Positions 5,787 to 61,863 of a stretch of 64,000 bases of DNA are shown here, piece after piece. A model generated the notes under the pieces. The model worked only from the letters and a program-made list of their open reading frames with translations, searched no databases and was not told the DNA's origin. This DNA comes from Patescibacteria group bacterium (GTDB taxonomy: Bacteria; Patescibacteriota; Patescibacteriia; Magasanikbacterales; GWA2-37-8). The DNA lies in NCBI GenBank assembly GCA_035289165.1, contig DATDYA010000008.1, positions 572 to 64,571 on the forward strand. The letters are read 5' to 3'. Numbering within the stretch: the stretch's first letter is position 1; each line of letters opens with the position of its first letter. A program made the position numbers and the translations under genes.

Positions 5787-5845
5787 TTTGTTACGAATAT
5801 TATAGCACAGAGGCGAAAGTCGGACAAATAAAAGAACTACAGAGG

Positions 5846-5874
5846 TTGCCAAAACTAACCGGATGGTATATAAT
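5846..5874 (+). promoter_or_regulatory. Sigma70-like promoter TTGCCA-17-TATAAT for the C39-like peptidase gene
   Basis: Near-consensus -35 and a perfect -10 with 17-bp spacing. It ends about 20 nt upstream of the ATG at 5895. Confidence 0.5.
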
Positions 5875-5894
5875 AGGCGCCCTTATGAAAAATT

Positions 5895-6359
5895 ATGGCT
5901 TTGCCGTACTACAAACAAGAGACCAATTATACCTGTGGTCCAGCCAGCTTTCGCATGGTTATGGCTTCTTTGGGTTTTATCTATGATGAAACAGAATTAA
6001 AAAAATTGTTAAAAACCAGCAAAATTTGGGGTACTTTGCACAAAAGCTTCGTGGAAGCGGCAGAAAAACATAAGCTTAACTATGTCGTAAAAAGAAATAC
6101 GGAAGTAAACGAATTGAGGAAAGCCTTAAGAAAAAAGAAGCTGGCGATTGTCTGTTATGCCATGCCACCACACGAAATATATCATTACGCAGTGGTAAAA
6201 AAGGTTGGTCTAAAATATATTTATTTGTTGGATCCCTTCCTTGGCCCGAATTGCCAGTATTTACTTACTGACTTTGTAAAATTTTGGAAAAGTGACCCCA
6301 AACACGAAGGTGATGAGAGATGGTTTTTCGCCATTGAAAATAACAAGGCCGTGAATTAA
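5895..6359 (+). CDS. Standalone papain-like cysteine peptidase, C39-like domain
   Basis: Q-x4-TCGPAS catalytic-Cys motif (QETNYTCGPASFRMV) and a downstream HYAVV His motif. 154 aa with no ABC-transporter fusion. Confidence 0.55.
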   Translation: MALPYYKQETNYTCGPASFRMVMASLGFIYDETELKKLLKTSKIWGTLHKSFVEAAEKHKLNYVVKRNTEVNELRKALRKKKLAIVCYAMPPHEIYHYAVVKKVGLKYIYLLDPFLGPNCQYLLTDFVKFWKSDPKHEGDERWFFAIENNKAVN

Positions 6360-7678: not shown

Positions 7679-9241
7679 ATGCCAGTCGTAGAGTGGGGTC
7701 ATGATTTCGAACCTTATGAACAGGCGTCGGATTTTGAATTATTTAGGAAAACACCCAGTGAGCTTGCTCAAAAATTGAAGCAATTAGCCGATCGGGGCGA
7801 AGCAAGAGATTACCTAAGGCGAGCTTTTTTAGATCCGCGTAATATTGCGACGGTTAGCTATTATGAAAAATGGATGGTAAAGAAGGTTCAAGATATCATC
7901 GAAGAATTGGTTAAGGAAAAGGAGGAGGAATCTTGGGCACAGGGCGAACTGCCCGCCGGGTTAGCCGAAAGATATTCTGAAGAAGAACTAAAGCAATTAC
8001 TTTCTAGTTTGTTTTTTGTTCAACCTACCCAAGGCTGCGCCCACGCTTGTCCATTTTGCGCTTGGGATGCCCCTAAGGGAGTGAGGAGCACCATACCGTT
8101 TAATCAGTTTGCTAAACTAATGGAAAAGTACGGCGATGTTTTTAAAGATAATTGTATTGACTTGCACTTTGCTTCTGAGCCAGGTGATTATAAATACACG
8201 GATCCCGTAAGTGGTAAGGAGTATGATTATTCTGATTTACTATCCGTAGCCAAGAATTTTTTGAGCGGGACGGTCAATTCTTTTCTAACACGACGATCAG
8301 ATGATGAATGGCTCGAATATGTTGTCAAAGAAGGCGGTTTAAGAAGCCTGGATAACGCTACAAATCGTCGATTACAAAAACAAAAAACAAATGGGCGGGG
8401 CAGAGGTTTCAAAGGTGTTAAACATCACGCTGAAGGTGGGGACGAGAGGTTGCATACGCCAGGTATTGGTTTGAGTATTAAAAAAACAAGGAATTTAGTC
8501 GGTAAAGAGCGGGGTATTTATACACGAAAACCAGGTAGCATACTCACACCACGAGGTTATCTACATATTTTCCCCGGCGAGATACAAGATGTTTCACCGC
8601 AAGGACTAGTGGCTGTAGCAGTTGGGGAGTTGCACAGAATCGAAGAGGCCTATGAAAAATTAAAGCCGGGGGTCAAATTACAAGACGTAATGAGTGGTTT
8701 CGCAATTTATAAAATGTTTGACTTAAAACTCCTTCCCGATTTTAAACACGCTTTTGTAGCCTATACCGGGAACAGTAGTGACACCGGAATGGTTGTAGTA
8801 TATAGCCCGACCACTTATGAGATTACCGAGACGCATCCCTTTAAAATGACGTTAGATGAGTACAAAAAGAATTATCAATTATTGAAAAATAAATACTTTG
8901 AAGGCTATATGAAAGAGCCGATTTGGCCTGGAAAATATGAAGAAATTTTACCCGACATGGATTATAACCTGGCGATAGTCAAGCGGTTTTCTGACTTGTC
9001 AACAGATATGGGCTGGCTGACAATCGTTCAGAAGTATGTTCGCGAAAAAACTCAAGAGGTACACAGTATCATATTTTACAGGTTAAATCATGTGTTTAAA
9101 GCATATTTATTAACTGTTAAACCCAGTTTTACTAGTGATGTTATTGATTTGAATTGGCTGGAAAGGCAATTTTTAATCTTTTTGGGGTCGGACCAATTTA
9201 AAAAGATAGAAAAAGAAGGCTTTGTTCGAAAAAACTCTTAA
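7679..9241 (+). CDS. Hypothetical 520-aa protein with a radical-SAM-like CxxxCxxC motif
   Basis: TQGCAHACPFCAWD contains C-x3-C-x2-C. About 40 residues later, DLHFASEPGD resembles the SAM-binding GGEP motif. No other recognisable domain. Preceded by a 328-bp AT-rich spacer. Confidence 0.5.
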   Translation: MPVVEWGHDFEPYEQASDFELFRKTPSELAQKLKQLADRGEARDYLRRAFLDPRNIATVSYYEKWMVKKVQDIIEELVKEKEEESWAQGELPAGLAERYSEEELKQLLSSLFFVQPTQGCAHACPFCAWDAPKGVRSTIPFNQFAKLMEKYGDVFKDNCIDLHFASEPGDYKYTDPVSGKEYDYSDLLSVAKNFLSGTVNSFLTRRSDDEWLEYVVKEGGLRSLDNATNRRLQKQKTNGRGRGFKGVKHHAEGGDERLHTPGIGLSIKKTRNLVGKERGIYTRKPGSILTPRGYLHIFPGEIQDVSPQGLVAVAVGELHRIEEAYEKLKPGVKLQDVMSGFAIYKMFDLKLLPDFKHAFVAYTGNSSDTGMVVVYSPTTYEITETHPFKMTLDEYKKNYQLLKNKYFEGYMKEPIWPGKYEEILPDMDYNLAIVKRFSDLSTDMGWLTIVQKYVREKTQEVHSIIFYRLNHVFKAYLLTVKPSFTSDVIDLNWLERQFLIFLGSDQFKKIEKEGFVRKNS

Positions 9242-17039: not shown

Positions 17040-20000
17040 ATGATTGAAAAATACCCAGATTTAGAAAGCCTTCAGTCCGAGGCGATTGAGTTAGACAGGA
17101 GGGGGTCAGAACTAAAACGGAAAGGCCTGGCCTCTAGTATCCAAGAAGGGGTCGACTTAGAAGTCCTTAAAGAAAAAAGTATAAAAAAAGCGAAGAATGA
17201 ACTTAGCCCAACCGAACAAAAAAGAGATGAAAAAAGCGGGGAGGCCTATTATTTTAATCCAGAAGATGAATTTAATACAGAAATTTATTTAGAATTTCTT
17301 CGAAGACGCGATTTAAAAATTGAACAAGCGGCCAAGAGAAATTTATCTGGGAAAAAGTTTTCTTCCCGAGAAGACTATTTACAAGCATTGGAAACCGAAA
17401 TTCATGAACTAAAATATTTTCCTGTATTTTTTATAAGTGCCCCCCATATCGGGGAGGGTGTAAGCGGGGTTTTTCCGGGCGAGCCAACGCCGTTAATGTA
17501 TGCCACCGCAGTTCTTGATCGTTACTTGCGTACGGACACTTTCCCGGCCGCCTCAAGTCCAGAGGTGACGGCAGTGATGAATCCGGACCAATTTAGCGAT
17601 GAGTTTATACAAAACCTTATCGAAAGAGTTAAAAGAGAAAAACCACGAGTGGTTGGTATAAGTAATACTAGCGAAGGTCATTATTTCGCTATCGAAATAG
17701 CTAAAATAATAAAAATGTATTCGCCTGATACTTTAGTAATATTGGGCGGTTCGCACGAGGATGGTCTTAACGCCGATGCCTATCTTTGTTCTAAACTGCT
17801 GTCTAGTGAGGAAAGTGTTACAGCAATCAAAAGCCAGTCTACCTTGGAAGACAAAAAATCTCGAGGTGTTGTTGACATGGTGGTGGCTGGCGATGCCCCC
17901 TACGCCTTAGCCGAAATTTTTAAATTTATTGCCAACAACCGAGATAAGAACAATAATGAAATTATTGAAAATATTTTAAAAAATCGTGGCATATTCAAAC
18001 AAATTGAAGGCTCTGGTAGTTTAACCGTAAAAGGTTTACAAGGTGAAACTGTGGCGGTGAGTTTAAGTGGAACGCCACTCGACTGGAACAAATTACCTTT
18101 TATGTTTCGCGGAAGGCTTACTAGAGAAAACCGGTTTTCACTTTTTGATAACAAAAAAACCGCTCACGTAATGACTCAAATGGGGTGTAAGTATGGTTGT
18201 GGGTTTTGTATGGAGTCTCTAAACGGAGATTTATATCCCATAAATCGTTTTAGACAACCAAGCACTCAAAAGACTAGTAGAGAGTTAGAAATATTAGTTA
18301 AAGATTATGGATACGAGGCTGTATTTTTTGATGATTCAACTTTCACCCAGAGTCCCAGAAAAACCGAGGAGTTACTCGATGAAATAATTAGTCTTCAAGA
18401 ACGGGAAGTTCGATTCGAGTGGGCGTGTCAAACCGCTTTTGCTGACATACCTCGCAGAGATTTTTTAGAAAAAATGAAAAAAGGAGGGTGTACCTATATA
18501 TATTTTGGCTTTGAGCAACTTGAAGAAGCCGTAGAGGGAAGAAGAAAACAGGTTGACCCGCGCCAAGTTGAAAAAGTACTTCTTTGGTGTAAGGAATTAG
18601 GGATTCGTACTGGCGTGTCTTTACAATTTGGCCTGGCTGGGTTGGGTGAATATAAAAGGACTATTGATTATATCGCCGGTCTTTATGACGACGGTTTGGT
18701 GAGTAAAAATTCTATTGCCATAAATATTAACACGCCTTATCCCGGCACTCGAGAATGGTTGGAAATGGAAAACAGGCCGGATTTTAGCCAAAACCTACGC
18801 CGCCATCCACGGTTCGAATCAGCCCATCAACTATCTAATTTAACGATGGAAAAGGTAAATGAAATTTATGAATATGCTCGGACCAAACTTAATGATGGAT
18901 TAATCGGCGTAGAATATAGTAACCAAGAAATTCAAGCACACCTTGAGAGGTATTCTGGTAAATTCAACCAGGATTTTTATTTTGATAGTTCCCAGTATCA
19001 AAAATTTTTAGAAGGAAAATTGGACGGTGGTTTACACTTGAACCATGCTTCAATTTCTAATCACCCCGGTGAAGTTGGGGAAATAGAAGAAGCGGCTAGT
19101 CAACTTAGTAAAAGAGAAAAAGAAAGGTTATTTGAGTCCGCGAGAGATAGGGCCGCGGAACTCGTGGGTGTAGAGAGAAGTGGTGTTATCTTTGCTCGTA
19201 ATACTACAGAAGCCATGGCTTTAATAGTAAAATTAATCGAGCTCACCAAGGGGGACCACGTTGTTCTGACTGACGCTGAAAATCCTTCCATTGCCCGATT
19301 GTTTGAAGTTAATATGGATCATGGAAATCCTGAAGGTGATGATGGTTGGTCAGCCTACCCCACTTTTTATCATCAACGAGGGAAGAGGTATGGGAAGACC
19401 TTGCCGGAACTTACCGGCGTAAATACGGAGACAATTAGCGTGGTTGAAGAAAATTTAGATGATATCTATCGCAACATCGAATCGAGTCTTACGCCGGACA
19501 CGAAGTGTTTTGTAATAAGTCATGTTATTCGTGATACAGGCGAGGAACTACCGGTAAAAGACATTTGTCAGTTTGTAAAGGACGCAAAAAAAAGGATTAA
19601 CCCCGATGATCCAGAAATATTTGTAATTGTCGATGGAGCCCAGGCCTTAGGTAACTTGCCATATGTGGACTTTAAAGATATTGGGTGTGATGCTTATGTT
19701 GGTACACCTCACAAAACCATGGCAAGCACTCCGGTAGGGCTGGGCTTTTTTGATTCTACTAACCCACGAATTAGAAAAAGAATAGAAAAATTGAGCGGCT
19801 TATTTTGGCAAGATCAGCAGGTAGTATTGTCTGGTATGTTTGATCCAGATCTACGTGTAGAACCAAATGTACCCGATAGTCTGGACTACCGAGATCTATT
19901 GGGTTTTAATTTAGCCCTTGATAGGTTAAAAGCGGCGGGGTATGAAAAAGGTGATTTTAGTAAAATCAACGAAAAACGTCGTGAACTAAAAGACACTTTT

Positions 20001-46356: not shown

Positions 46357-46872
46357 TTAAAGATGAATTCTTAGATATTTTGTTAGCACTAACTCGTTTG
46401 TTTGTCGAATCACTTCTTTTTTCCAATCACTTTCGTGAAGCGAAGGGAAAAAAACATCACCGGAATATTCTTTATCAATGTGCGTGATATACATTTCTTG
46501 AGCCAGATCAGTGGTTTGTTTATATACTGTCCCGCCGCCAATAACGTAGATAGTTTCCTCTAAATCTTTTAGCGCTTTCTTTAAATCATGATAAATGAAC
46601 ACCCCATCCGGTACCCGGTAACTTAAATCGTGAGTCAAGATAATATGTTTACGCTTTTTGAGCGGTTTGCCCTGCTTGGCTAGAATACTTTCAAAGGTCC
46701 GTCGGCCCATGAGAATGGTTTTGCCTTCGGTAATTTCTTTAAACCATTTTAATTCTTCCGGATAATGCCAAGGTAAGGCATTGTTAGAACCAATGACATT
46801 ATTTTTTGCGATCGCGGCAACGATGACGATCTTACTTGTCGGCAGTGGTTGGGGAATGGCCGTATTTTTCAT
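46357..46872 (-). CDS. folA: Dihydrofolate reductase
   Basis: KIVIVAAIAKNNVIGSNNALPWHYPEELKWFKEITEGKTILMGRRTFESI matches the DHFR N-terminal consensus. The start is placed at MKNTAIP, which overlaps the 3' end of thyX by 41 nt. Confidence 0.8.
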   Translation of the reverse strand: MKNTAIPQPLPTSKIVIVAAIAKNNVIGSNNALPWHYPEELKWFKEITEGKTILMGRRTFESILAKQGKPLKKRKHIILTHDLSYRVPDGVFIYHDLKKALKDLEETIYVIGGGTVYKQTTDLAQEMYITHIDKEYSGDVFFPSLHESDWKKEVIRQTNELVLTKYLRIHL

Positions 46873-48481
46873 CAAGTTGTTGTTCCTTAATCCGCTGTTT
46901 TGCTTCGCTGTCCCCACGAGCACTGGAGTAATCATTATGATCAACAAATTTCATAATGCTCGCGCGCCACGGGTTAACTTTGGCAATTTGATCATGCATA
47001 AGTTGGGCAACTTTGCGGTATTGAGGGTGTCCTTGGGGCACGGTTCGAATTTCGAGTAAGTGCATCGCCTCGCGGTCGTTAAAACCAATTAGCCAACGCA
47101 CCCGTGAACCATGCAAAGCGACGTAGGAGGCCGCATCGCCAATTACTGGGTAAGCTTTGTTATAGAAATTTAAGACTTTTTCATGACACTCCAGGGCTTG
47201 GGGAGAAAAACCTGCTTCTATCAAATCGTTTGGTAATTCCATACCATGAATGGGGCTAAATGGTTGGCGCAGTTGGGTGTTCATGCGATGACGCATAATA
47301 TCTTTGTAGCTACCAAAATCTGTTAACATGTCAAAGGTATAAGTATAGCCCGATTCAAACGCTCGACCCGGCCTGTCCCGTCGCGTAGAGCGATCACCAA
47401 CGTAAGTTGTTTTGATCCTCTCTTTTTGTTCGGGAGTAAGATGTTTAACTACCTCGTAGACCTGTGAGAAGGAATGTCTGGTAAATGGATAAAGCATGTG
47501 GGCCACCAGGTAGTCTTCGGTATCGCGTAGTTCCATTGGCACTAAATGGACTTTTTCAGTTAACCCAAACGGTAAAAATCCAAAAATATTTTTGGCTAAG
47601 GATTTCATTTCTGCATCAATTTTTTGGTTGTATTCTTTCACCTTGGCGCGGCGGACATATTGTTTAATAACGTCGGTCAGGGCCTCAAAGGTTTCTTGGC
47701 CAATTTGTTTTACTTCCTCCAAATCCGAACTAATTAAATGTGAAATTAAGTACTGGTAAAATCGTCCGTTGCCAAATACCCCCATATTAGTTTTGGTACT
47801 AATCGGCAATAGACAGCGAAGTGAATCGCAGGCTTTGGTCCGTATATCCATATTATATGTAATACGGAAAGCCTTCTGGTCCTTTTCTTCTTTTAGTTCG
47901 TTATATTTTTGTTTTTGGCCGCTACCCAAGATGTCGTAAGCGGCTGTTTCCAGAGGAAGTCGTTTTTTATAAAACTCTTGCATTGGTGCAATCAAGGCAG
48001 CGTAGGTATCAAAGATAAAATCCATTGTTTCTTCATATTCCTTTGCAAAAGGCGAAGCCATTATTTTTGGTTCGCGGACATACTTGTATTTCCCGTTCTC
48101 ATCTTTTTCATCAAAGAAAACATAGCGGGTAGATTTTTCCAATGGTGAGCCACCAATACGGCGATCCTCGATTTCTTTGGTCGCGAGAATCGAGATATTT
48201 TCGAAAGAGACATGGGCCCCCTCTAATTCACCGACCGAGTCGTCGCCATAAGCGATTAGGACCCGTTCGATAAGCTCATCGGCGTGTTTGTAATCAATTT
48301 TTTCCCCATCCTTCATGAATTCCTCCAATAGCATTTCGCGGAAACCGAGTTTCGATCGGGAGTAGCGTGCATACGCTGCTCCGACAATTCCGTTCATGCC
48401 AGTAATGGCGTAGACCTCCCGTTCCGTACTGGTGACATATGGTTTCAAGACCTCCTTTTCCTCCGGTGTGAAGTTGGGCAT
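46832..48481 (-). CDS. thyX: FAD-dependent thymidylate synthase ThyX, long tandem-domain form (549 aa)
   Basis: The C-terminal half carries the ThyX signature RHRMNTQLRQPFS (RHR-x7-9-S). The N-terminal half is a degenerate ThyX-like repeat (KEIEDRRIGGSPLEKSTRY). Confidence 0.8.
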   Translation of the reverse strand: MPNFTPEEKEVLKPYVTSTEREVYAITGMNGIVGAAYARYSRSKLGFREMLLEEFMKDGEKIDYKHADELIERVLIAYGDDSVGELEGAHVSFENISILATKEIEDRRIGGSPLEKSTRYVFFDEKDENGKYKYVREPKIMASPFAKEYEETMDFIFDTYAALIAPMQEFYKKRLPLETAAYDILGSGQKQKYNELKEEKDQKAFRITYNMDIRTKACDSLRCLLPISTKTNMGVFGNGRFYQYLISHLISSDLEEVKQIGQETFEALTDVIKQYVRRAKVKEYNQKIDAEMKSLAKNIFGFLPFGLTEKVHLVPMELRDTEDYLVAHMLYPFTRHSFSQVYEVVKHLTPEQKERIKTTYVGDRSTRRDRPGRAFESGYTYTFDMLTDFGSYKDIMRHRMNTQLRQPFSPIHGMELPNDLIEAGFSPQALECHEKVLNFYNKAYPVIGDAASYVALHGSRVRWLIGFNDREAMHLLEIRTVPQGHPQYRKVAQLMHDQIAKVNPWRASIMKFVDHNDYSSARGDSEAKQRIKEQQLDEKYGHSPTTADK

Positions 48482-48498: not shown

Positions 48499-51400
48499 TT
48501 AAGCAGCTTGGTCATAAGATTGCTCGGCCAGTCGATCGTTAAGTTCATTATAGGGGATGAGATCCCCTAATTCGTCCTCAGCAATTTCAAAGGTCTCCCC
48601 AGTAAATTTCCCGTTTAAATCAACGGCTTGAGCAGTAAAATATTGGGTCAGGTCTGGGGACTCTCCCGAACTCCCTTGCAAGTTGACTACCCGTCCTTTG
48701 TGGAGTCGGTATTGTCCAATTACTGGCTTATTTTCCTCTTTGGTTGTTGCGGCTTTGGTTTCAACATTAGGTTGGGCGTTGCTTTCAGGGGCTGGTTGTT
48801 TATCACTAGTTTTATCTCCCCTTGTAGCAGACTTTAAGGCGTTTTCTGCCTCCGGCCCGAAAGGTTTCAGTTTATTAGCCATTACGAAACGTTCAGCAGT
48901 AGACTTGTGGCCATTGGCGATGAGTGAGCCAACAATATGTTTTAAAGCTAGGGGTCTTTCGGCTTTTAAGGTGGTTGATGCTACTATCTGGTCAAATAAT
49001 TTTCCTAAATCAACAGTTGGGTTTAGCTCACCTTTCTTGATTGCTGTTTCAGTTTTTATTTTATAGGCTTCAAAACTCTCTCCCTCCTCGCGAGATAGCT
49101 GTTTGATCACTTTGTTACTTTCGGATTCTACTATTGACTCCCCCAGCTCCCCCTTTTCTTTAGTTTTTTTAACTACTTCAGTTGGGTTTATAGATTCTTT
49201 CTTCGCGTCATCTATGTTATCAGGGTGTAGTGGGTGATACGTTTCATACATTTCTCCAGCCTCATCGTCGCCGCCCACGTCTTCTGAATCTGGAGTAATA
49301 ACATCAGGTGTTTCCTCGGTAGCGGCCTCCTTTTGTTTTGACACCGCCTCAGCTCGTAGGTGTTCTGTTACTTGCTTCAAAGCCTCACCGGTTTGGTACT
49401 TAAATTGATCGGTGCCTTCTCGGTAGTCATCTTGCGTATCATTTAAGTCGGCCGTCTTACCCGCTTGTTTGTCGGCTAAGGCCCAGCCCCTACGATTTGT
49501 ATCCGTTTGCATCTTGAGTGGGTCATCGTCTTTAAGTTCTGAATAGACCTCAAATGAAGCTAATTTATCTTGTTCGCTCTCAGTTCTTTTAAAATAATTG
49601 GATTTATATTTTTCACTCTCAAGGAGTCCAGTCTTTTTAGCCAGAAGCGCATCCAAAGCGGCAGTCTGCTCTTCAATTGATGGTTGGGTAGCCTCTGGCG
49701 CCGCTCCGGTTTCCTTGCTAGTGGCTGGGGCGGATTCTTTAACCAACAGTCTTCTTACGTCGCCGGAACGGTGTAGGGCAATTTCATGGCCTTTGGTAAT
49801 TTCTTCATCTATGGTTTGTCGCACCAGCTCGTTTTTAGTTGGCAAGAGAAGGGTTCTGGTATAATTCTCTTGGGCCACCAAATTGTCAATTGGTACAACC
49901 GAATATTCTAGTTTTCCTATGGATAACGTCTTACCTTCTTTCTTCACTACCACATCGTTCCCCTGCTCCTCAAACTGCTTTATCTTTTTATCTACAAAAG
50001 CTTGATCTAAATCTGGCCGTCCTTCAGTCTTAATGTCCCAGTCAGTAAATTGGTAGCCACCGCCTTCAAGTTGCGCTTTGCTAAGTCGGCTAGTATTCTC
50101 GGCTCGAATTTCGATTGTTTGTTCCGCGTCTTTTTCGGCAGCTTCCTGAGCTTTTTCTGAGGAAGACACAGCAGAAGAGGCTGTTTCAGTGGTCGCAGTT
50201 TTGTAATATTGGATTGAATCTTTTAACTGTTGAAGGATTGTTTCCTCGATTTTTAGTCGTCCGATCGTGGTTATTAGCAAATCGGCTTTAGAGTTGTTTG
50301 GATCTTTCATTTTGGCTTCTAGGTCAAGCCGCCCCTCATTGTTCGAAGCTAATTTTTCGTCTGCCCACTGGCTGGCTTTTTCTTTCGAAGTTTTAAGCAA
50401 ATTGCGAAACTCGGAATTAGGCCGTGAAACATCTTCTACAAGCTTGTAGGCTTGAGTCCAAGCATCGCGAGAAGATTTTTGTAGCATCCTTTGGCGGTCT
50501 TGTTGGAAGGTTGGGTCAAAATCCGGATTTTTCCCTCCAAAACGGACGATACTAGATAAGTGTTTAGCAGCACTGTCTACTAATTGTAACTTCATGCCGA
50601 CAATATAACGGGAAAATTCTTTAGAGAAAACTTCGTCATCAACTCCTGACTCCTGGGTTGTTTCTTTAGTCGGAGCAGCCTTTTCGACTGGTTGTTTAGC
50701 CGCTGCTTCTGTTTCAAATTGTTGTCCGCCGTCAATAGCTTCAAAAACTTTTTTGAAAGCATCTTCAGTCGAGAGGTAGTTTTTTAGTGTTGGGCTTACT
50801 TCACCATCTTGGTATTTTTTAGCTAGGAATTTCTGGATATTCGGTAGGCTACCTTCGTCTTTCATTAAATCAAATAAATCACGATCGGCTTGAGACAGTT
50901 TACCAAAAAGTTTGGCCTCAGAAACTTCCTTACTCGGTTTTTGGATTTTTTCGTCTGGGGCTACCTCTTTTGCTACTTCTTCGCCTTGTAACTCGGCGAA
51001 TACTGGCTGTAACTCTTCGATGGTAGATAAGTAGTCGTTAAGTTCTTGACTTACTAGATTCTTTTCATATAGTTTTTTAACTAGATTCTGTCTTTCGGTT
51101 GCAGTTTTGGTTTGGATAATCTGGTTTAAAAGTTCACCATCTTCTGGTGTTAGTTTGCCTTTCATTTCTGCGGCGTCTTCGTCGGTTGGTTCGCCCATTT
51201 TTTCTTCGGATTTTTTAGTATCGTTTCCTTCCGCCCCAGTTGTTTCGGCGTCGACTTCTTTAGTGGCTTCAGAAGCAGTTTTTTTTGCTTCAGCGCGAAG
51301 TACTTCTAACTGTGCAGACAATTCATCGCCAACCCTAGGATCAAGTTCGCCGGCTTTAACCAAATGGTTAATTTTAATTTCTAGATCAACTATAGTGTCT

Positions 51401-51705
51401 TCCGTATGTTTTTCAGTATCCTGAATAATTTCACCCACTTCTTCTTTTAATTCAGCTTGTTTGTCCGACCATTTTTTATCAAAGTATGCTTCCATATCAG
51501 CCCGGTATTTCTCTGATTCTCCAGCTACCTTCGCCCAAATACGGCGAAGTAGGCCGGGTTTTTCTCCGCTAGGTTCTTGGGTTGAGGTTACTTCAGCTTT
51601 TTCTGCTACCCCTTTTTCTTTCATTGCTTTGTTTTGATTATTGAGCGACCCCTCCATTTGCTGAATCTGCTCTCGGCTTAGATCTTCATTAAATCCTGCC
51701 ACCAT
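48499..51705 (-). CDS. Hypothetical 1068-aa highly charged (E/K-rich), coiled-coil-like protein with internal repeats
   Basis: No catalytic motif. Internal repeat LVKKLYEKNLVSQELNDYLSTIEELQPVF / FLAKKYQDGEVSPTLKNYLSTEDAFKKVF. Low-complexity acidic stretches. It is embedded in the dTMP gene block. Confidence 0.7.
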   Translation of the reverse strand: MVAGFNEDLSREQIQQMEGSLNNQNKAMKEKGVAEKAEVTSTQEPSGEKPGLLRRIWAKVAGESEKYRADMEAYFDKKWSDKQAELKEEVGEIIQDTEKHTEDTIVDLEIKINHLVKAGELDPRVGDELSAQLEVLRAEAKKTASEATKEVDAETTGAEGNDTKKSEEKMGEPTDEDAAEMKGKLTPEDGELLNQIIQTKTATERQNLVKKLYEKNLVSQELNDYLSTIEELQPVFAELQGEEVAKEVAPDEKIQKPSKEVSEAKLFGKLSQADRDLFDLMKDEGSLPNIQKFLAKKYQDGEVSPTLKNYLSTEDAFKKVFEAIDGGQQFETEAAAKQPVEKAAPTKETTQESGVDDEVFSKEFSRYIVGMKLQLVDSAAKHLSSIVRFGGKNPDFDPTFQQDRQRMLQKSSRDAWTQAYKLVEDVSRPNSEFRNLLKTSKEKASQWADEKLASNNEGRLDLEAKMKDPNNSKADLLITTIGRLKIEETILQQLKDSIQYYKTATTETASSAVSSSEKAQEAAEKDAEQTIEIRAENTSRLSKAQLEGGGYQFTDWDIKTEGRPDLDQAFVDKKIKQFEEQGNDVVVKKEGKTLSIGKLEYSVVPIDNLVAQENYTRTLLLPTKNELVRQTIDEEITKGHEIALHRSGDVRRLLVKESAPATSKETGAAPEATQPSIEEQTAALDALLAKKTGLLESEKYKSNYFKRTESEQDKLASFEVYSELKDDDPLKMQTDTNRRGWALADKQAGKTADLNDTQDDYREGTDQFKYQTGEALKQVTEHLRAEAVSKQKEAATEETPDVITPDSEDVGGDDEAGEMYETYHPLHPDNIDDAKKESINPTEVVKKTKEKGELGESIVESESNKVIKQLSREEGESFEAYKIKTETAIKKGELNPTVDLGKLFDQIVASTTLKAERPLALKHIVGSLIANGHKSTAERFVMANKLKPFGPEAENALKSATRGDKTSDKQPAPESNAQPNVETKAATTKEENKPVIGQYRLHKGRVVNLQGSSGESPDLTQYFTAQAVDLNGKFTGETFEIAEDELGDLIPYNELNDRLAEQSYDQAA

Positions 51706-51715
51706 ATATTTAAAA

Positions 51716-51883
51716 TTAAAGATTATTAATTTTATTTTTTAATTCCTCAATCTTTTTTTGGTCGGCTTCTTTTACCGCACCTTGAACCAACTTTTTGCTT
51801 TCTTCTTCAATCGCTTTTTCTTTTTTTAAAAATCCAAATAGCAGATTAACTAATTTTTTTGCTTTTTCTTTTATGGTCGCCAT
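51716..51883 (-). CDS. Candidate small ORF (55 aa, K/E-rich helical peptide) between dut and the 1068-aa gene
   Basis: ATG at 51883 through TAA at 51716 gives MATIKEKAKKLVNLLFGFLKKEKAIEEESKKLVQGAVKEADQKKIEELKNKINNL. It is below the 60-aa cutoff of the ORF track and fills an otherwise empty 209-bp gap on the operon strand. Confidence 0.3.
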   Translation of the reverse strand: MATIKEKAKKLVNLLFGFLKKEKAIEEESKKLVQGAVKEADQKKIEELKNKINNL

Positions 51884-51914: not shown

Positions 51915-52346
51915 CTAAACACCAGTCGAACCAAAACCGCCCCGGTCGGGACTACCCACATTTTCTGTTTCCTCCCACTTTCCTTGCTCATATTTTACAA
52001 ACATCCCCTGGGCAATTCGTTCACCCTTTTCAATTTTAACTTCCTGATCAGTTAAATTATATACCGAAACCAGTATTTCGTCAGTTGGCCCGCAGTAATC
52101 GCTGTCTATAACCCCGACGCTATTAGCCAGCATTAGCCCTTTGCGTGGTGCCAAGCTTGAACGGGAAAAGATTAATAAAACGTAGCCGGGCGGGGTGGCT
52201 ACGATTAAATTTGAGGGTACCTTAAATTGACCGCGGGCTGGAACGATACAGTCCTCGCGGGAGTAGATGTCAAAAGCGGCCGCGCCAGCAGTTTTGTATT
52301 CAGGCAAGGGTAAGGAGGTGTCAATTCTTTTAATTTTAACTTGCAT
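51915..52346 (-). CDS. dut: dUTP diphosphatase
   Basis: AGAAAFDIYS, SRSSLAPRKG, GVIDSDY and a C-terminal RGGFGSTG motif. The start is placed at MQVKIKRID. Confidence 0.9.
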   Translation of the reverse strand: MQVKIKRIDTSLPLPEYKTAGAAAFDIYSREDCIVPARGQFKVPSNLIVATPPGYVLLIFSRSSLAPRKGLMLANSVGVIDSDYCGPTDEILVSVYNLTDQEVKIEKGERIAQGMFVKYEQGKWEETENVGSPDRGGFGSTGV

Positions 52347-52911
52347 AATGGGCAATAAATTTTTCAATTTCCTTTTTGTACTCTTCTAGGGTGCCAGTAT
52401 TTAAAATGGTATAATCCGCCATCGCAATTGGCCCGCCTTTTTCAACATTTTCAATCTCGTTATAATCTCTTTTCTTGGCATCTTCCTTGGTGAACGAACG
52501 ATTACGAAGATCTTTATCCTCTGGGCCAGAGACTCGGCTGGAAATTCTTTCGTAACGCAAAGCTGGTGGTGCATAAACCGCGACAATGGTAAGACGATCA
52601 CCGTAATAATCTTTTAATACTTTGTATTCCGACCAGCTATAGAGTCCGTCGGCTACCAGATTTTTACTTTCCAGGACCTTGTCAAATTTAGGGATATTTA
52701 ATTTTGCTACTGCGGCCATACCGTGTTCGGTGCGGAGTTCTTCGCGAATAATCTTTTCATTTTTTTCATTAGTTTCCCAGCCTCTTTCTTTTAAAATGTC
52801 TAAGTTGATCTGTCCAAATCTGACGTAGCCCCAACCCCTTTCGACCAGCATGTCTGCTAGCACGCTTTTACCGGCGCCGCACATACCAACAATTGCAATT
52901 ACTTTTTTCAT
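52336..52911 (-). CDS. P-loop nucleoside/nucleotide kinase-like protein (dephospho-CoA-kinase / UPF0200-like), paralog B
   Basis: Walker A IAIVGMCGAGKS. About 190 aa with an adenylate-kinase-like layout. Confidence 0.5.
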   Translation of the reverse strand: MKKVIAIVGMCGAGKSVLADMLVERGWGYVRFGQINLDILKERGWETNEKNEKIIREELRTEHGMAAVAKLNIPKFDKVLESKNLVADGLYSWSEYKVLKDYYGDRLTIVAVYAPPALRYERISSRVSGPEDKDLRNRSFTKEDAKKRDYNEIENVEKGGPIAMADYTILNTGTLEEYKKEIEKFIAHYAS

Positions 52912-52912
52912 A

Positions 52913-53500
52913 TTACTTTTTGGATTTTATCTCGCTTAAAATTTTTTCAATTTCAGTATAGAATTCTTCAAAACTTAAATTATTATAAATAGTGTATTCA
53001 GCACTTTTGCCTAATTCTTTAATTAAAATATCCGCTTCGGCCTGTTCATCTTTTAAAAATTCTTCGTAAGTTTTTTCCATGTCATCCTCATTTTCACCGC
53101 GTTTTACCAGGCGTTCCCAGCGCAATTTAGATTCCGCAGTAATGTATATTAAGTGAAAACCAGGAATCTCCCGTAAGTAAGTAATGTCGGTTGGACGGCG
53201 TACCCCCTCAACAACCACTATTTCGTTTGGGTCATTTTTTACATCCTCGGCAATGACTTTACTTAAAACGTCTTGGCCAAAGTTTTCTCTTAATACTGTC
53301 GATATATTTTGTAAGTTTCCTCGCGTTTCCGGTAGATACAGACGGTTAATAATATCTCGTAAAATTGTTGAGAAACGATAAGAATTAGAATTATATTTTT
53401 CTTTTAAATATTTGGCGGCTGTACCTTTTCCAGAAGACAAATCACCAACAAACCCAAGAATTATTTTACTGGTTGGCATATTGTTCAAGATTTTCATCAA
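52913..53500 (-). CDS. P-loop nucleoside/nucleotide kinase-like protein, paralog A
   Basis: Walker-A-like GDLSSGKGT, then VVVEGVRRPTDITYL...LIYITAESKLRWERLVKRG. Confidence 0.5.
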   Translation of the reverse strand: MMKILNNMPTSKIILGFVGDLSSGKGTAAKYLKEKYNSNSYRFSTILRDIINRLYLPETRGNLQNISTVLRENFGQDVLSKVIAEDVKNDPNEIVVVEGVRRPTDITYLREIPGFHLIYITAESKLRWERLVKRGENEDDMEKTYEEFLKDEQAEADILIKELGKSAEYTIYNNLSFEEFYTEIEKILSEIKSKK

Positions 53501-53969
53501 AATATATTAGGTCCATACCTACCTCATGAAACATTTCTTCAGATTCGCTTCCAGCATGGTATTTTTTTTCACAAACAACCTTTTTGATACCAGCATTAAT
53601 GATCATCTTTGCGCAAACTGCACACGGTGTCATTTTACAATAAAGGGTGGCACCATCAATGGCGACCCCTATCTTTGCGGCTTGAACAATCGCATTTTGT
53701 TCGGCGTGAGCAGTGCGGACGCAGTGCTGGCTTTGGTGACCATCTTCGTGAATGGTGGTTTTCATTTGGTGGCCGATTTCATCACAGTGGGGCATACCTT
53801 TTGGCGATCCAACGTAGCCGGTAACAAGGATTTGTTTGTCTTTGGCGATGACACAGCCACTTCGTCCACGATCACACGTGGCGCGTTTTGCAACAGCACG
53901 TGCCACCTCCATGAAGTATTCATCCCAGGTCGGTCGAACGTATTTTTTTATGGGTGTTTGAGTAGACAT
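53466..53969 (-). CDS. comEB: dCMP deaminase (ComEB-type cytidine/deoxycytidylate deaminase)
   Basis: Zinc motifs HAEQNAI and PCAVCAKMI. 167 aa. Confidence 0.85.
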   Translation of the reverse strand: MSTQTPIKKYVRPTWDEYFMEVARAVAKRATCDRGRSGCVIAKDKQILVTGYVGSPKGMPHCDEIGHQMKTTIHEDGHQSQHCVRTAHAEQNAIVQAAKIGVAIDGATLYCKMTPCAVCAKMIINAGIKKVVCEKKYHAGSESEEMFHEVGMDLIYFDENLEQYANQ

Positions 53970-60252: not shown

Positions 60253-61863
60253 ATGGAAGACGAAAGAGAAAAAAACAACTGGGATGGTTTTAGCCAAACC
60301 GATGTCGATGTTTTTTGTGAAGAATTGTTTGGTGAACTGGAAAAATCGCCGCAAAACATGGCGGTTTGGGTCGAGACAACTAGGTCTCGGATTAAGGAAA
60401 AACTCTTAGAAAAATTAAAAGGTCAGTTGGTGGGTGGAGACACTCTGGATTGGAAAAAAGTTTTGGGTTATGCCGAGATTGGCCGTTATAGCCAGATGAT
60501 AAAGCACCCCAAGGATTCGGAGGTTGGTAGATATTTGCGCACTGAAGAAGTGGCTGGAAAAGTGGAGTTTTTTCCCAAGGAAGAGGTCGCTCATGTCGCC
60601 CGGGTTTACAGCGAAATGACCAGCCGGATTCTCTTAAAACTATTGGAATCTAACCTGGTTAATGATTTGAACATTAACGAACAGTCTCTCCTAAGTTTAG
60701 GTTTAAACGTCAACGTCCACTTTGGTCGTATTTATGATCGCCAAAACCAAAAGGCCGAGGGGTATAAAGGGTTCGTGAACAAGGATGAAACCGGTCACAC
60801 CTGGAATTACCTTCCCCACGAATGGAAATCTTTGCCCGAAGGGGACCCAGATAAACAGGCTACCGAGAATTATCTTTTAGCCCGCTCAAGTGACTTGGCC
60901 CAAAAAGGTTTGTTGGCTGAAGCGCGTTATGCGGGAGCTCTATTAAAAATTTTGCAAAGTTCAAACCAAGCTGATTACCAGATGGCTGGGTTGGAATTGG
61001 ATCGCGCCTGGATCGCTTTAATGCAACAAACACCGCGAGTGGTCGTCTCGGCTTTAATGGAGAGAAACGAAGCCGAGCGTAGTGGTTATAACCGTTTGAG
61101 TATGGAAGTGGCGCGCGTTGACGAGGCCTCGCCGTTTACCAAAGCTTTGCGTGATGAACAAAAGAGGTTTTTCACTTGGTTGGAAAAAGATGAGAAGTTA
61201 AAATCCTTGGTACCAGAAATGGTGCGTGTTCAGGCCGAATCAATGCCACTGTTGCCAGTACGGATCATCGCTGTTTCCGGCCGAGTATGGGAAGTTAAAT
61301 TCGGGGCAGCCCAAACCATCCCCGACGGTCCAGAATTTGAACGTGAAGGACAAGCCGCGCTTTTTTTTGAGGATCGTTTTGACCCACCGAAGACAATCAA
61401 GGAGGGATTAGTTATTGCTCCCGCTGATCGCGTCACAAAATTAGCTGATTATGAACTTGGTCATACCTTAAGCCATTACGATGAATATGCTAAAGCCACC
61501 CTTGAATACACCAAGGCTCGTTTATTTAGTGTTGCCTCTTTGTCTGACAGCGAAGATCTGGATTTGGTAAGGAAAAGAATTTATCTTTTGCATGAAGATA
61601 TTGGGCGTGTTGTCAACACCCAAGGTGAACAATATGATATTTTTAAAAAGCTTGCTAAGAAAATGTTTACCGACCAGGGTTATTTAACTGGGGAGGACGA
61701 ATTAAATCTAGATGCTTTAGCTGACAATGAAAAAAATCGAGCCTTTGTTAGTAGCGCTCGGTTAAAGTTGATTGGTATGCTGGAGTTGCATCGTCGTTTG
61801 GCTGAAGAAATTCCCGAAGAGGACAAAGCACAACTGATTGAAGATTTTCTCGCCGAATTTTAG
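60253..61863 (+). CDS. Hypothetical cytosolic protein (536 aa)
   Basis: Long intact ORF with no recognisable motif. Divergent from trpS. Confidence 0.6.
   Translation: MEDEREKNNWDGFSQTDVDVFCEELFGELEKSPQNMAVWVETTRSRIKEKLLEKLKGQLVGGDTLDWKKVLGYAEIGRYSQMIKHPKDSEVGRYLRTEEVAGKVEFFPKEEVAHVARVYSEMTSRILLKLLESNLVNDLNINEQSLLSLGLNVNVHFGRIYDRQNQKAEGYKGFVNKDETGHTWNYLPHEWKSLPEGDPDKQATENYLLARSSDLAQKGLLAEARYAGALLKILQSSNQADYQMAGLELDRAWIALMQQTPRVVVSALMERNEAERSGYNRLSMEVARVDEASPFTKALRDEQKRFFTWLEKDEKLKSLVPEMVRVQAESMPLLPVRIIAVSGRVWEVKFGAAQTIPDGPEFEREGQAALFFEDRFDPPKTIKEGLVIAPADRVTKLADYELGHTLSHYDEYAKATLEYTKARLFSVASLSDSEDLDLVRKRIYLLHEDIGRVVNTQGEQYDIFKKLAKKMFTDQGYLTGEDELNLDALADNEKNRAFVSSARLKLIGMLELHRRLAEEIPEEDKAQLIEDFLAEF

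Follow-up and report, generated by a model that had tools for sequence, protein, structure and literature searches.

What do two adjacent open reading frames (ORFs) encode that lie between dut and thyX in a Patescibacteria group bacterium, and do they take any part in the deoxynucleotide metabolism of their neighbors? They were examined in a stretch of 64,000 nucleotides (GenBank assembly GCA_035289165.1, contig DATDYA010000008.1, positions 572 to 64,571), hereafter called the window. The larger ORF (48499-51705) encodes 1068 aa and the smaller (51716-51883), a microprotein gene, encodes 55 aa; both are on the minus strand, as are all features of the pair and its array described below. We tentatively favor, with slightly less than even confidence, the reading that the pair is an orphan consisting of a non-enzymatic adaptor or scaffold protein and a microprotein partner, linked to the genes of deoxynucleoside triphosphate (dNTP) synthesis by position only.

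The two ORFs had been proposed in an earlier note, made from the DNA alone, at what proved to be their correct coordinates, with the reservation that the larger might be a decayed gene and the smaller might be missing from relatives. Since the large ORF is intact, with neither a frameshift nor a stop codon, and the small ORF is conserved at 55 aa in every relative, neither decay nor loss was found. Five contigs, assembled independently from different samples, encode the 1068-aa protein in identical form, and NCBI lists it as hypothetical protein VJH75_00575 of Patescibacteria group bacterium. Three related lineages carry orthologues of 1014, 595, and 597 aa (P0002-P0004; the window's protein is P0001). 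The order dut, 55-aa ORF, large ORF is kept in all four lineages, the spacer between small and large ORF is 10 bp in each of them, and thyX directly follows the large ORF wherever the contig reaches that far, the short contig of P0003 (L023) being the exception. The small ORF is 75-89% identical among relatives (41 of 55 alignment columns are invariant), and its ratio of nonsynonymous to synonymous substitutions (dN/dS, or omega) is 0.064-0.098 at a dS of 0.8-1.6. Its dN of 0.054 is about that of thyX (0.053). The large gene evolves ~5 times faster than the small ORF (dN 0.29 against locus L001) and stays in frame despite many indels. Because synonymous sites are saturated, dN/dS could not be computed for most of the large gene; where estimable, omega is 0.17-0.46. 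Both ORFs are real genes.

These data bear directly on the view that the pair is non-functional, whether as a gene in decay or as a spurious ORF whose frame owes its length to A-rich sequence of low complexity. Its acidic low-complexity runs, a structural model of which more than half is of very low confidence, and the lack of known domains would all fit that view. However, the frame spans 1068 codons, the orthologues remain in frame across many indels, dN of the modules is well below the saturated dS (omega 0.17-0.46, and 0.06-0.10 for the small ORF), the sequence is identical in five assemblies, and one module is still recognizable at 33% identity in a distant genome. We consider non-functionality to be already effectively refuted.

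The large protein contains 12.4% Glu, 10.6% Lys, and 7.1% Asp, so that its earlier description as E/K-rich was apt, but it is net acidic (isoelectric point [pI] 4.85, net charge -57), and low-complexity acidic runs are present. It has no transmembrane segment and no signal peptide, the maximum 19-residue Kyte-Doolittle hydropathy being 0.78. Alignment of the four orthologues showed three modules common to all of them (N, mid, and C), separated by acidic, poorly conserved linkers that gain or lose whole segments between lineages. The N module (residues 1-150; 51256-51705) is helical and conserved in 4/4 orthologues, with a dN of 0.25-0.33 and modelled helices at residues 11-37, 65-95, 102-117, and 123-153. 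It includes a cationic amphipathic motif, GEKPGLLRRIWAKVAGE (residues 47-63; 51517-51567), that is conserved in the orthologue alignment. The N-module motif GEKPGLLRRIWAKVAG has a hydrophobic moment of 0.55 and a net charge of +3, and is one of only two such stretches in the large protein; any role for the motif at residues 47-63 is putative. The mid or "QTGEAL" module (residues about 678-795; 49321-49674), in which the motif QTGEAL is invariant, occurs in all orthologues and in a distantly related membrane protein (loci L021/L022; see below). The C module (residues about 860-945; 48871-49128), also helical and present in all orthologues, has a dN/dS of 0.17 against L001 and a predicted local distance difference test score (pLDDT) of 65-79.

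Only the two long orthologues (P0001 and P0002) have the segments at residues 160-530, among them an internal repeat, copy 1 of which covers residues 178-241 (50983-51174; pLDDT 71-76) and copy 2 residues 263-326 (50728-50919), as located by local alignment and in the orthologue alignment, and a helical region (residues 351-514; 50164-50655) common only to P0001 and the 1014-aa P0002. The repeat is a 63-aa duplication with a local alignment score of 76, compared with 24.1 ± 4.6 (maximum 47) for 500 shuffles (z = 11.4). Two further segments are specific to this genome, both with a pLDDT of about 30: an insert at about residues 515-660 (49726-50163), absent from P0002-P0004, in which two short strands are modelled, and an insert near the C-terminus (residues 995-1066; 48508-48723) that begins VIGQYRLHKGRVVNLQGSSG. 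Behind the latter the protein ends in Ala-Ala (48502-48507). This dipeptide is invariant, as 4/4 orthologues end in it even though their preceding tails are unalignable. Of the window's other ORFs with 150 aa or more, 49 in number, none ends this way, and the Ala frequency is 6.7%.

A full-length AlphaFold2 model, built on an alignment of four sequences, had a mean pLDDT of 49.9, and 580 of its 1068 residues scored below 50. Helix makes up about 50% of it, in stretches of at most 41 residues that are broken up by linkers of low confidence. No helical rod of at least 100 residues was found in the model, and no coiled-coil family domain in family searches. Given the short, interrupted helices, the large protein looks, in this model, like a set of helical modules on flexible linkers rather than a long coiled-coil rod. 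The mid module modelled alone from five sequences was predicted with far higher scores (pLDDT 89.8, predicted template modelling score 0.82) as a compact domain of helices that also has a short loop resembling a hairpin. Since the full-length model was too poor, the fold search was limited to this module, for which no structural neighbor was found in the PDB. Several features of the large protein that had been noted beforehand thus survive. The internal repeat is genuine, with only two copies, and a distinct C-terminal segment starting at VIGQYRL does exist (residues 995-1066), although it is specific to this genome and absent from the three orthologues. The coiled-coil character was left unconfirmed by a low-confidence model with no helix beyond 41 residues, and the notion of a giant structural protein was not borne out, the model showing short helical modules with low-confidence linkers.

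The 55-aa protein is basic (pI 9.6), carries a patch of hydrophobic residues in its N-terminal part (LVNLLFGFL), and becomes charged toward the C-terminus (KKLVQGAVKEADQKKIEELKNKINNL). To judge by its sequence, it is probably helical. No family match was obtained for it in Pfam, NCBIfam, PHROGs, PADLOC, or the search of Pfam with separate pieces. The possibility that it arose as a duplicate of an N-module helix (KINxL) was considered and not adopted, as it had only E-values of 0.03-0.46 in a small local database and non-colinear, AT-rich DNA matches in its favor.

Homology searches were equally unproductive for the whole proteins, neither of which matched Pfam, NCBIfam, PHROGs, PADLOC, or PDB sequences; the neighboring genes all matched their own families in the same Pfam and NCBIfam runs. 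When the large protein was searched against Pfam as seven separate pieces (E ≤ 1), only sub-threshold noise was returned, with IFT20 (E 0.0063), Lambda_ea8_5, and others falling far below their gathering scores. The only match among PDB sequences, caltractin (E 0.018), was dismissed as compositional noise, and the NCBIfam match to RipC scored 15.5 bits against a cutoff of 425. Both genome-specific inserts lacked a match in Pfam or the PDB. No catalytic or nucleotide-binding domain was detected with Pfam or NCBIfam in the whole protein or its seven pieces, and the prior statement that the large ORF contains no enzymatic motif also held for PHROGs, PADLOC, and the PDB, where no catalytic match appeared. 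An exhaustive phmmer search of 1.84 billion cluster representatives recovered only P0001-P0003 and, via the mid module, a protein designated P0009 (E 2e-4). A metagenome scan with the mid-module profile yielded one locus, L022, scans of IMG/VR gave no relatives, and hidden Markov models of the small ORF, the mid module, and the whole protein found no other copy in the six-frame ORFs of L001-L022. There were no meaningful DNA repeats and no Rfam families in the region of the pair. Since tests for membership in known families failed, the pair is filed as unclassifiable; it fits no known family or system and is new in this weak sense only, and no new mechanism follows from its being so.

An unclassifiable pair of this kind might be a selfish or mobile cassette (phage-derived, toxin-antitoxin, or defence) integrated into the operon. 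Both genes are gained or lost together within a narrow clade and have no homologues in neighboring lineages, as such a cassette would require. Yet there was no match in PHROGs, PADLOC, or IMG/VR, the pair's content of G + C (0.40-0.45) is like that of the rest of the window, no notable repeats flank it, neither ORF matches a family suggestive of an integrase, and its position is stable across lineages in which synonymous sites are saturated. We consider a mobile cassette highly improbable.

The one distant homologue sheds light on both genes. P0009 derives from a 4.6-kb contig (L021), a broken assembly of a gene that is intact at L022, on a 182-kb contig, as a single gene of 1267 aa (cluster accession FLOH01000167.1 for L022/L021). 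The mid module of the 1267-aa protein matched the family profile at 33% identity (hhalign 97.8%, E 9.8e-13), and no other module was detectably shared with the large protein; a suspicion by eye that a 170-aa ORF of L021 might be the N module was unsupported by hhalign. Immediately in front of the L022 gene lies an ORF of 62 aa that resembles the 55-aa protein in its C-terminal half (EE.KKL...D..KI.....IN). Comparison of the two by hhalign gave an E-value of 5e-4 and by Smith-Waterman alignment a z of 3.7-4.6, with at most 0.4% of composition-preserving shuffles reaching the score. Weak by itself, this similarity gains weight from the shared position of the two small ORFs, and the two observations favor treating the small and large genes as a unit. 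The earlier note had called the small ORF only a possible partner; it is a real, conserved gene that always lies directly upstream of the large one, and its occurrence before the only distant homologue as well makes the partner relationship plausible.

The L022/L021 cluster resembles the window's pair in its mid module, its upstream small ORF, and the acidic N-terminal region (pI 4.88) of its large protein. It differs in that the latter ends in YAS and possesses transmembrane hairpins, a Pro-rich linker, and additional domains, one of them at the C-terminus, and in that the dNTP gene set is missing: the 14 kb of L022 that were examined hold no nucleotide-metabolism genes. Around the gene of the L022 protein lie instead a DUF5663 gene, the gene of a 1907-aa protein containing a Ser/Thr kinase domain, and ORFs that resemble exported proteins or lipoproteins. 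The 1907-aa protein (L022, 59-5782, plus strand), encoded upstream of the distant pair, has its kinase domain at the C-terminus and, by eye, Gly/Ala-rich hydrophobic segments and a glycosyltransferase-like middle; the DUF5663 gene comes next (5819-6145, plus strand). A tblastn search with the L022 DUF5663 protein (E ≤ 1) found no homologue in the window.

In light of the membrane-embedded homologue, we considered whether the large protein is a fast-evolving exported or surface factor for interaction with an episymbiotic host or partner, for which the microprotein would serve as chaperone or export adaptor, by analogy with LXG toxins and their Lap partners. Rapid evolution with many indels, a conserved N-terminal module followed by a variable remainder, and a small, helical-looking ORF directly upstream would all suit such a factor, as would a distant homologue with membrane segments, Pro-rich linker, and further C-terminal domain. 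On the other hand, the window's protein has neither a signal peptide nor a transmembrane segment (maximum hydropathy 0.78), and a search for LXG, WXG, or toxin domains came up empty; the gene downstream is thyX rather than one for immunity; and the variation consists of internal inserts rather than of a swapped C-terminal toxin. Nor were secretion genes seen in the window, its FtsK-family protein having the 4TM, alpha, and gamma domains of a true FtsK. Export therefore seems unlikely to us.

The gene order on the minus-strand array, dCMP deaminase (53466-53969), two small P-loop kinases (52336-53500), dut (51915-52367), 55-aa ORF, 1068-aa ORF, thyX (46832-48481), and DHFR, raises the question of a role in nucleotide metabolism most directly. 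The spacers around the pair are 31, 10, and 17 bp, and the small ORF fills the 209-bp gap between dut and the large ORF, the sizeable gap directly upstream of the latter to which it had originally been assigned. No promoter-like or terminator-like signals rose above shuffle expectation at the pair, so it is probably co-transcribed with the surrounding genes. The co-directional array extends on both sides, with IMPDH, an Orn/Arg decarboxylase, and ribosomal protein L1 upstream of 53969, and DHFR, tmk, a membrane protein, and gatB downstream of 46947. The presence of gatB, the membrane protein, L1, the decarboxylase, and IMPDH in the same array weakens the original contention that a protein of this type is unexpected in a nucleotide operon.

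Comparison with other genomes placed the pair in a narrow clade. In a thyX-anchored set of 16 loci from GTDB species representatives, it was present only in two, with thyX identities of 87-91%. At loci L007-L010, from distant Patescibacteria (thyX 53-58% identical), dut lies 4-206 bp from thyX, neither gene of the pair is present, and the spacers encode nothing similar, which agrees with the earlier description of the two genes as inserted. Since dut adjoins thyX without either gene in these bacteria, the pair, as far as gene content indicates, comes and goes as one lineage-specific unit. It is a lineage-restricted cassette, found in one narrow clade of Patescibacteria (CPR bacteria). As an observation apart, the dut-thyX spacers of L007 (7792-7997) and L010 (7831-7997) share a GC-rich palindrome, CTGTCATTGCGA(A)CCGCGTYYGACGCGGGAAGCAATC, that could be a repeat resembling repetitive extragenic palindromic (REP) elements or terminators.

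Would the pair nevertheless scaffold a thymidylate/dNTP complex of Dut, ThyX, DHFR, Tmk, and the two small kinases, through which dUMP, dTMP, and dTDP are channelled? It lies exactly between dut and thyX in 4/4 lineages with spacers of 10-31 bp, and the large protein has a modular build that includes several conserved modules of a binding type, set apart from one another. However, the pair is missing from other Patescibacteria that have the same set of dCMP deaminase, kinase, dut, and thyX genes, its only distant homologue is a membrane protein at a locus without nucleotide genes, the array also holds unrelated genes, and no nucleotide-binding motif or domain was found. We rate such a scaffold as quite unlikely. 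The absence of nucleotide genes at L022, the relatives without the pair, and the unrelated genes in the array instead point to a lineage-specific insertion, and are not evidence of a nucleotide role. Read most simply, the two genes were jointly acquired by, or jointly retained in, one narrow lineage at this site, and their link to dNTP synthesis is positional. A more ambitious proposal, by which the microprotein and the QTGEAL-module protein form a Patescibacteria-specific, membrane-proximal organizing system that has been recruited here to assemble dNTP enzymes into a metabolon, with abundance set by proteolysis at the Ala-Ala end, appears very unlikely to us; if true, an ultra-small cell would possess a scaffold devoted to making DNA precursors.

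Several neighbors of the pair, and other genes of the window, deserve mention in their own right. ThyX is of double length (549 aa) with two Thy1 stretches, and its length is 549-572 aa across the Patescibacteria loci L005-L016, which suggests a fused tandem ThyX. DHFR (46357-46947) comes directly after thyX and overlaps its end; flavin-dependent ThyX yields no dihydrofolate. The two adjacent P-loop kinases between dCMP deaminase and dut match AAA_17/AAA_18 and, weakly, a dNMP-kinase family; they are kept in relatives and are probably nucleotide kinases. Elsewhere, the window encodes rpoB, rpoC, ileS, and ftsK, as well as a 1260-aa ORF (17040-20822, plus strand) that joins B12-binding, radical SAM, and class-V aminotransferase domains in a fusion that looks unusual. 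Further large ORFs without a Pfam match encode 520 aa (7679-9241, plus strand) and 536 aa (60253-61863, plus strand).

Taken as an orphan adaptor or scaffold with its microprotein partner, the pair might work as follows. The large protein would act inside the cell as an adaptor or scaffold between proteins, possibly peripheral to the membrane, its folded N, mid, and C modules serving as binding sites while the acidic linkers tolerate rapid change. The basic, highly constrained microprotein could be its obligate partner. The cassette would have landed in a long co-directional array, and its position among dNTP genes would result from that landing site rather than from any part in nucleotide chemistry. 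The Ala-Ala end, invariant in the orthologues, may serve as a proteolytic signal of the ssrA/ClpX type or as another recognition signal. Hints of a membrane association come from the transmembrane hairpins of the L022 homologue and from the conserved cationic amphipathic motif at residues 47-63.

A number of points weigh against this interpretation. "Scaffold" is largely an argument by exclusion, and a functional tie to thymidylate synthesis would also predict the fixed position of the pair between dut and thyX in 4/4 lineages. A low pLDDT from a four-sequence alignment is no proof of disorder, and the conservation statistics are thin, as four close orthologues and one distant one are known. 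The similarity of the 62-aa and 55-aa proteins is weak (hhalign probability 31%), and both are K/E-rich. Finally, the residue at position -3, before Ala-Ala, is Q, D, M, and Q in the four orthologues, not Leu.

Patescibacteria, about half of whose genes are orphans, commonly encode fast-evolving orphan proteins in which long regions are predicted at low confidence. Against that background, the pair is a well-documented orphan and a defined two-gene target. Its value lies in clear module boundaries, a confidently predicted helical domain of ~110 aa without a neighbor in the PDB, a microprotein as conserved as ThyX, and a membrane-anchored relative. Should the pair turn out to organize the dNTP enzymes encoded nearby or to work at the membrane, it would illustrate how very small cells with few genes order their interior by means of lineage-specific proteins.

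Three known systems invite comparison. LXG polymorphic toxins, with their small helical Lap partners, are substrates of type VIIb secretion in Firmicutes. The pair recalls them in its upstream small ORF (helical by prediction only) and in a conserved helical N-terminal module followed by a variable remainder. It differs from them in that residues 1-160, which include the N module, have no LXG or WXG match at E ≤ 1, and in lacking a toxin domain and an immunity gene; the C-terminal 84 aa of the large protein match nothing in Pfam or the PDB, the next gene is thyX, and no type VII apparatus was seen in the window. Degrons of the ssrA type end in LAA-COOH and are recognized by ClpX. The large protein resembles them in the C-terminal Ala-Ala of 4/4 orthologues and departs from them in the preceding residue, which is Q, D, or M in place of Leu; the portions of the 64-kb window that were examined, a tRNA/tmRNA scan included, revealed no clpX, clpP, or tmRNA. 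PopZ of Caulobacter is a bacterial disordered, acidic hub or scaffold, a cytoplasmic protein that self-assembles into a polar matrix and recruits clients to it. The large protein is unlike PopZ in that no sequence or profile similarity was detected (no Pfam match), in being 4-6 times larger, and in having extra folded modules and a dedicated microprotein gene. It is like PopZ in being strongly acidic and probably cytoplasmic, with short conserved helical N- and C-terminal regions joined by variable acidic linkers and no catalytic domain.

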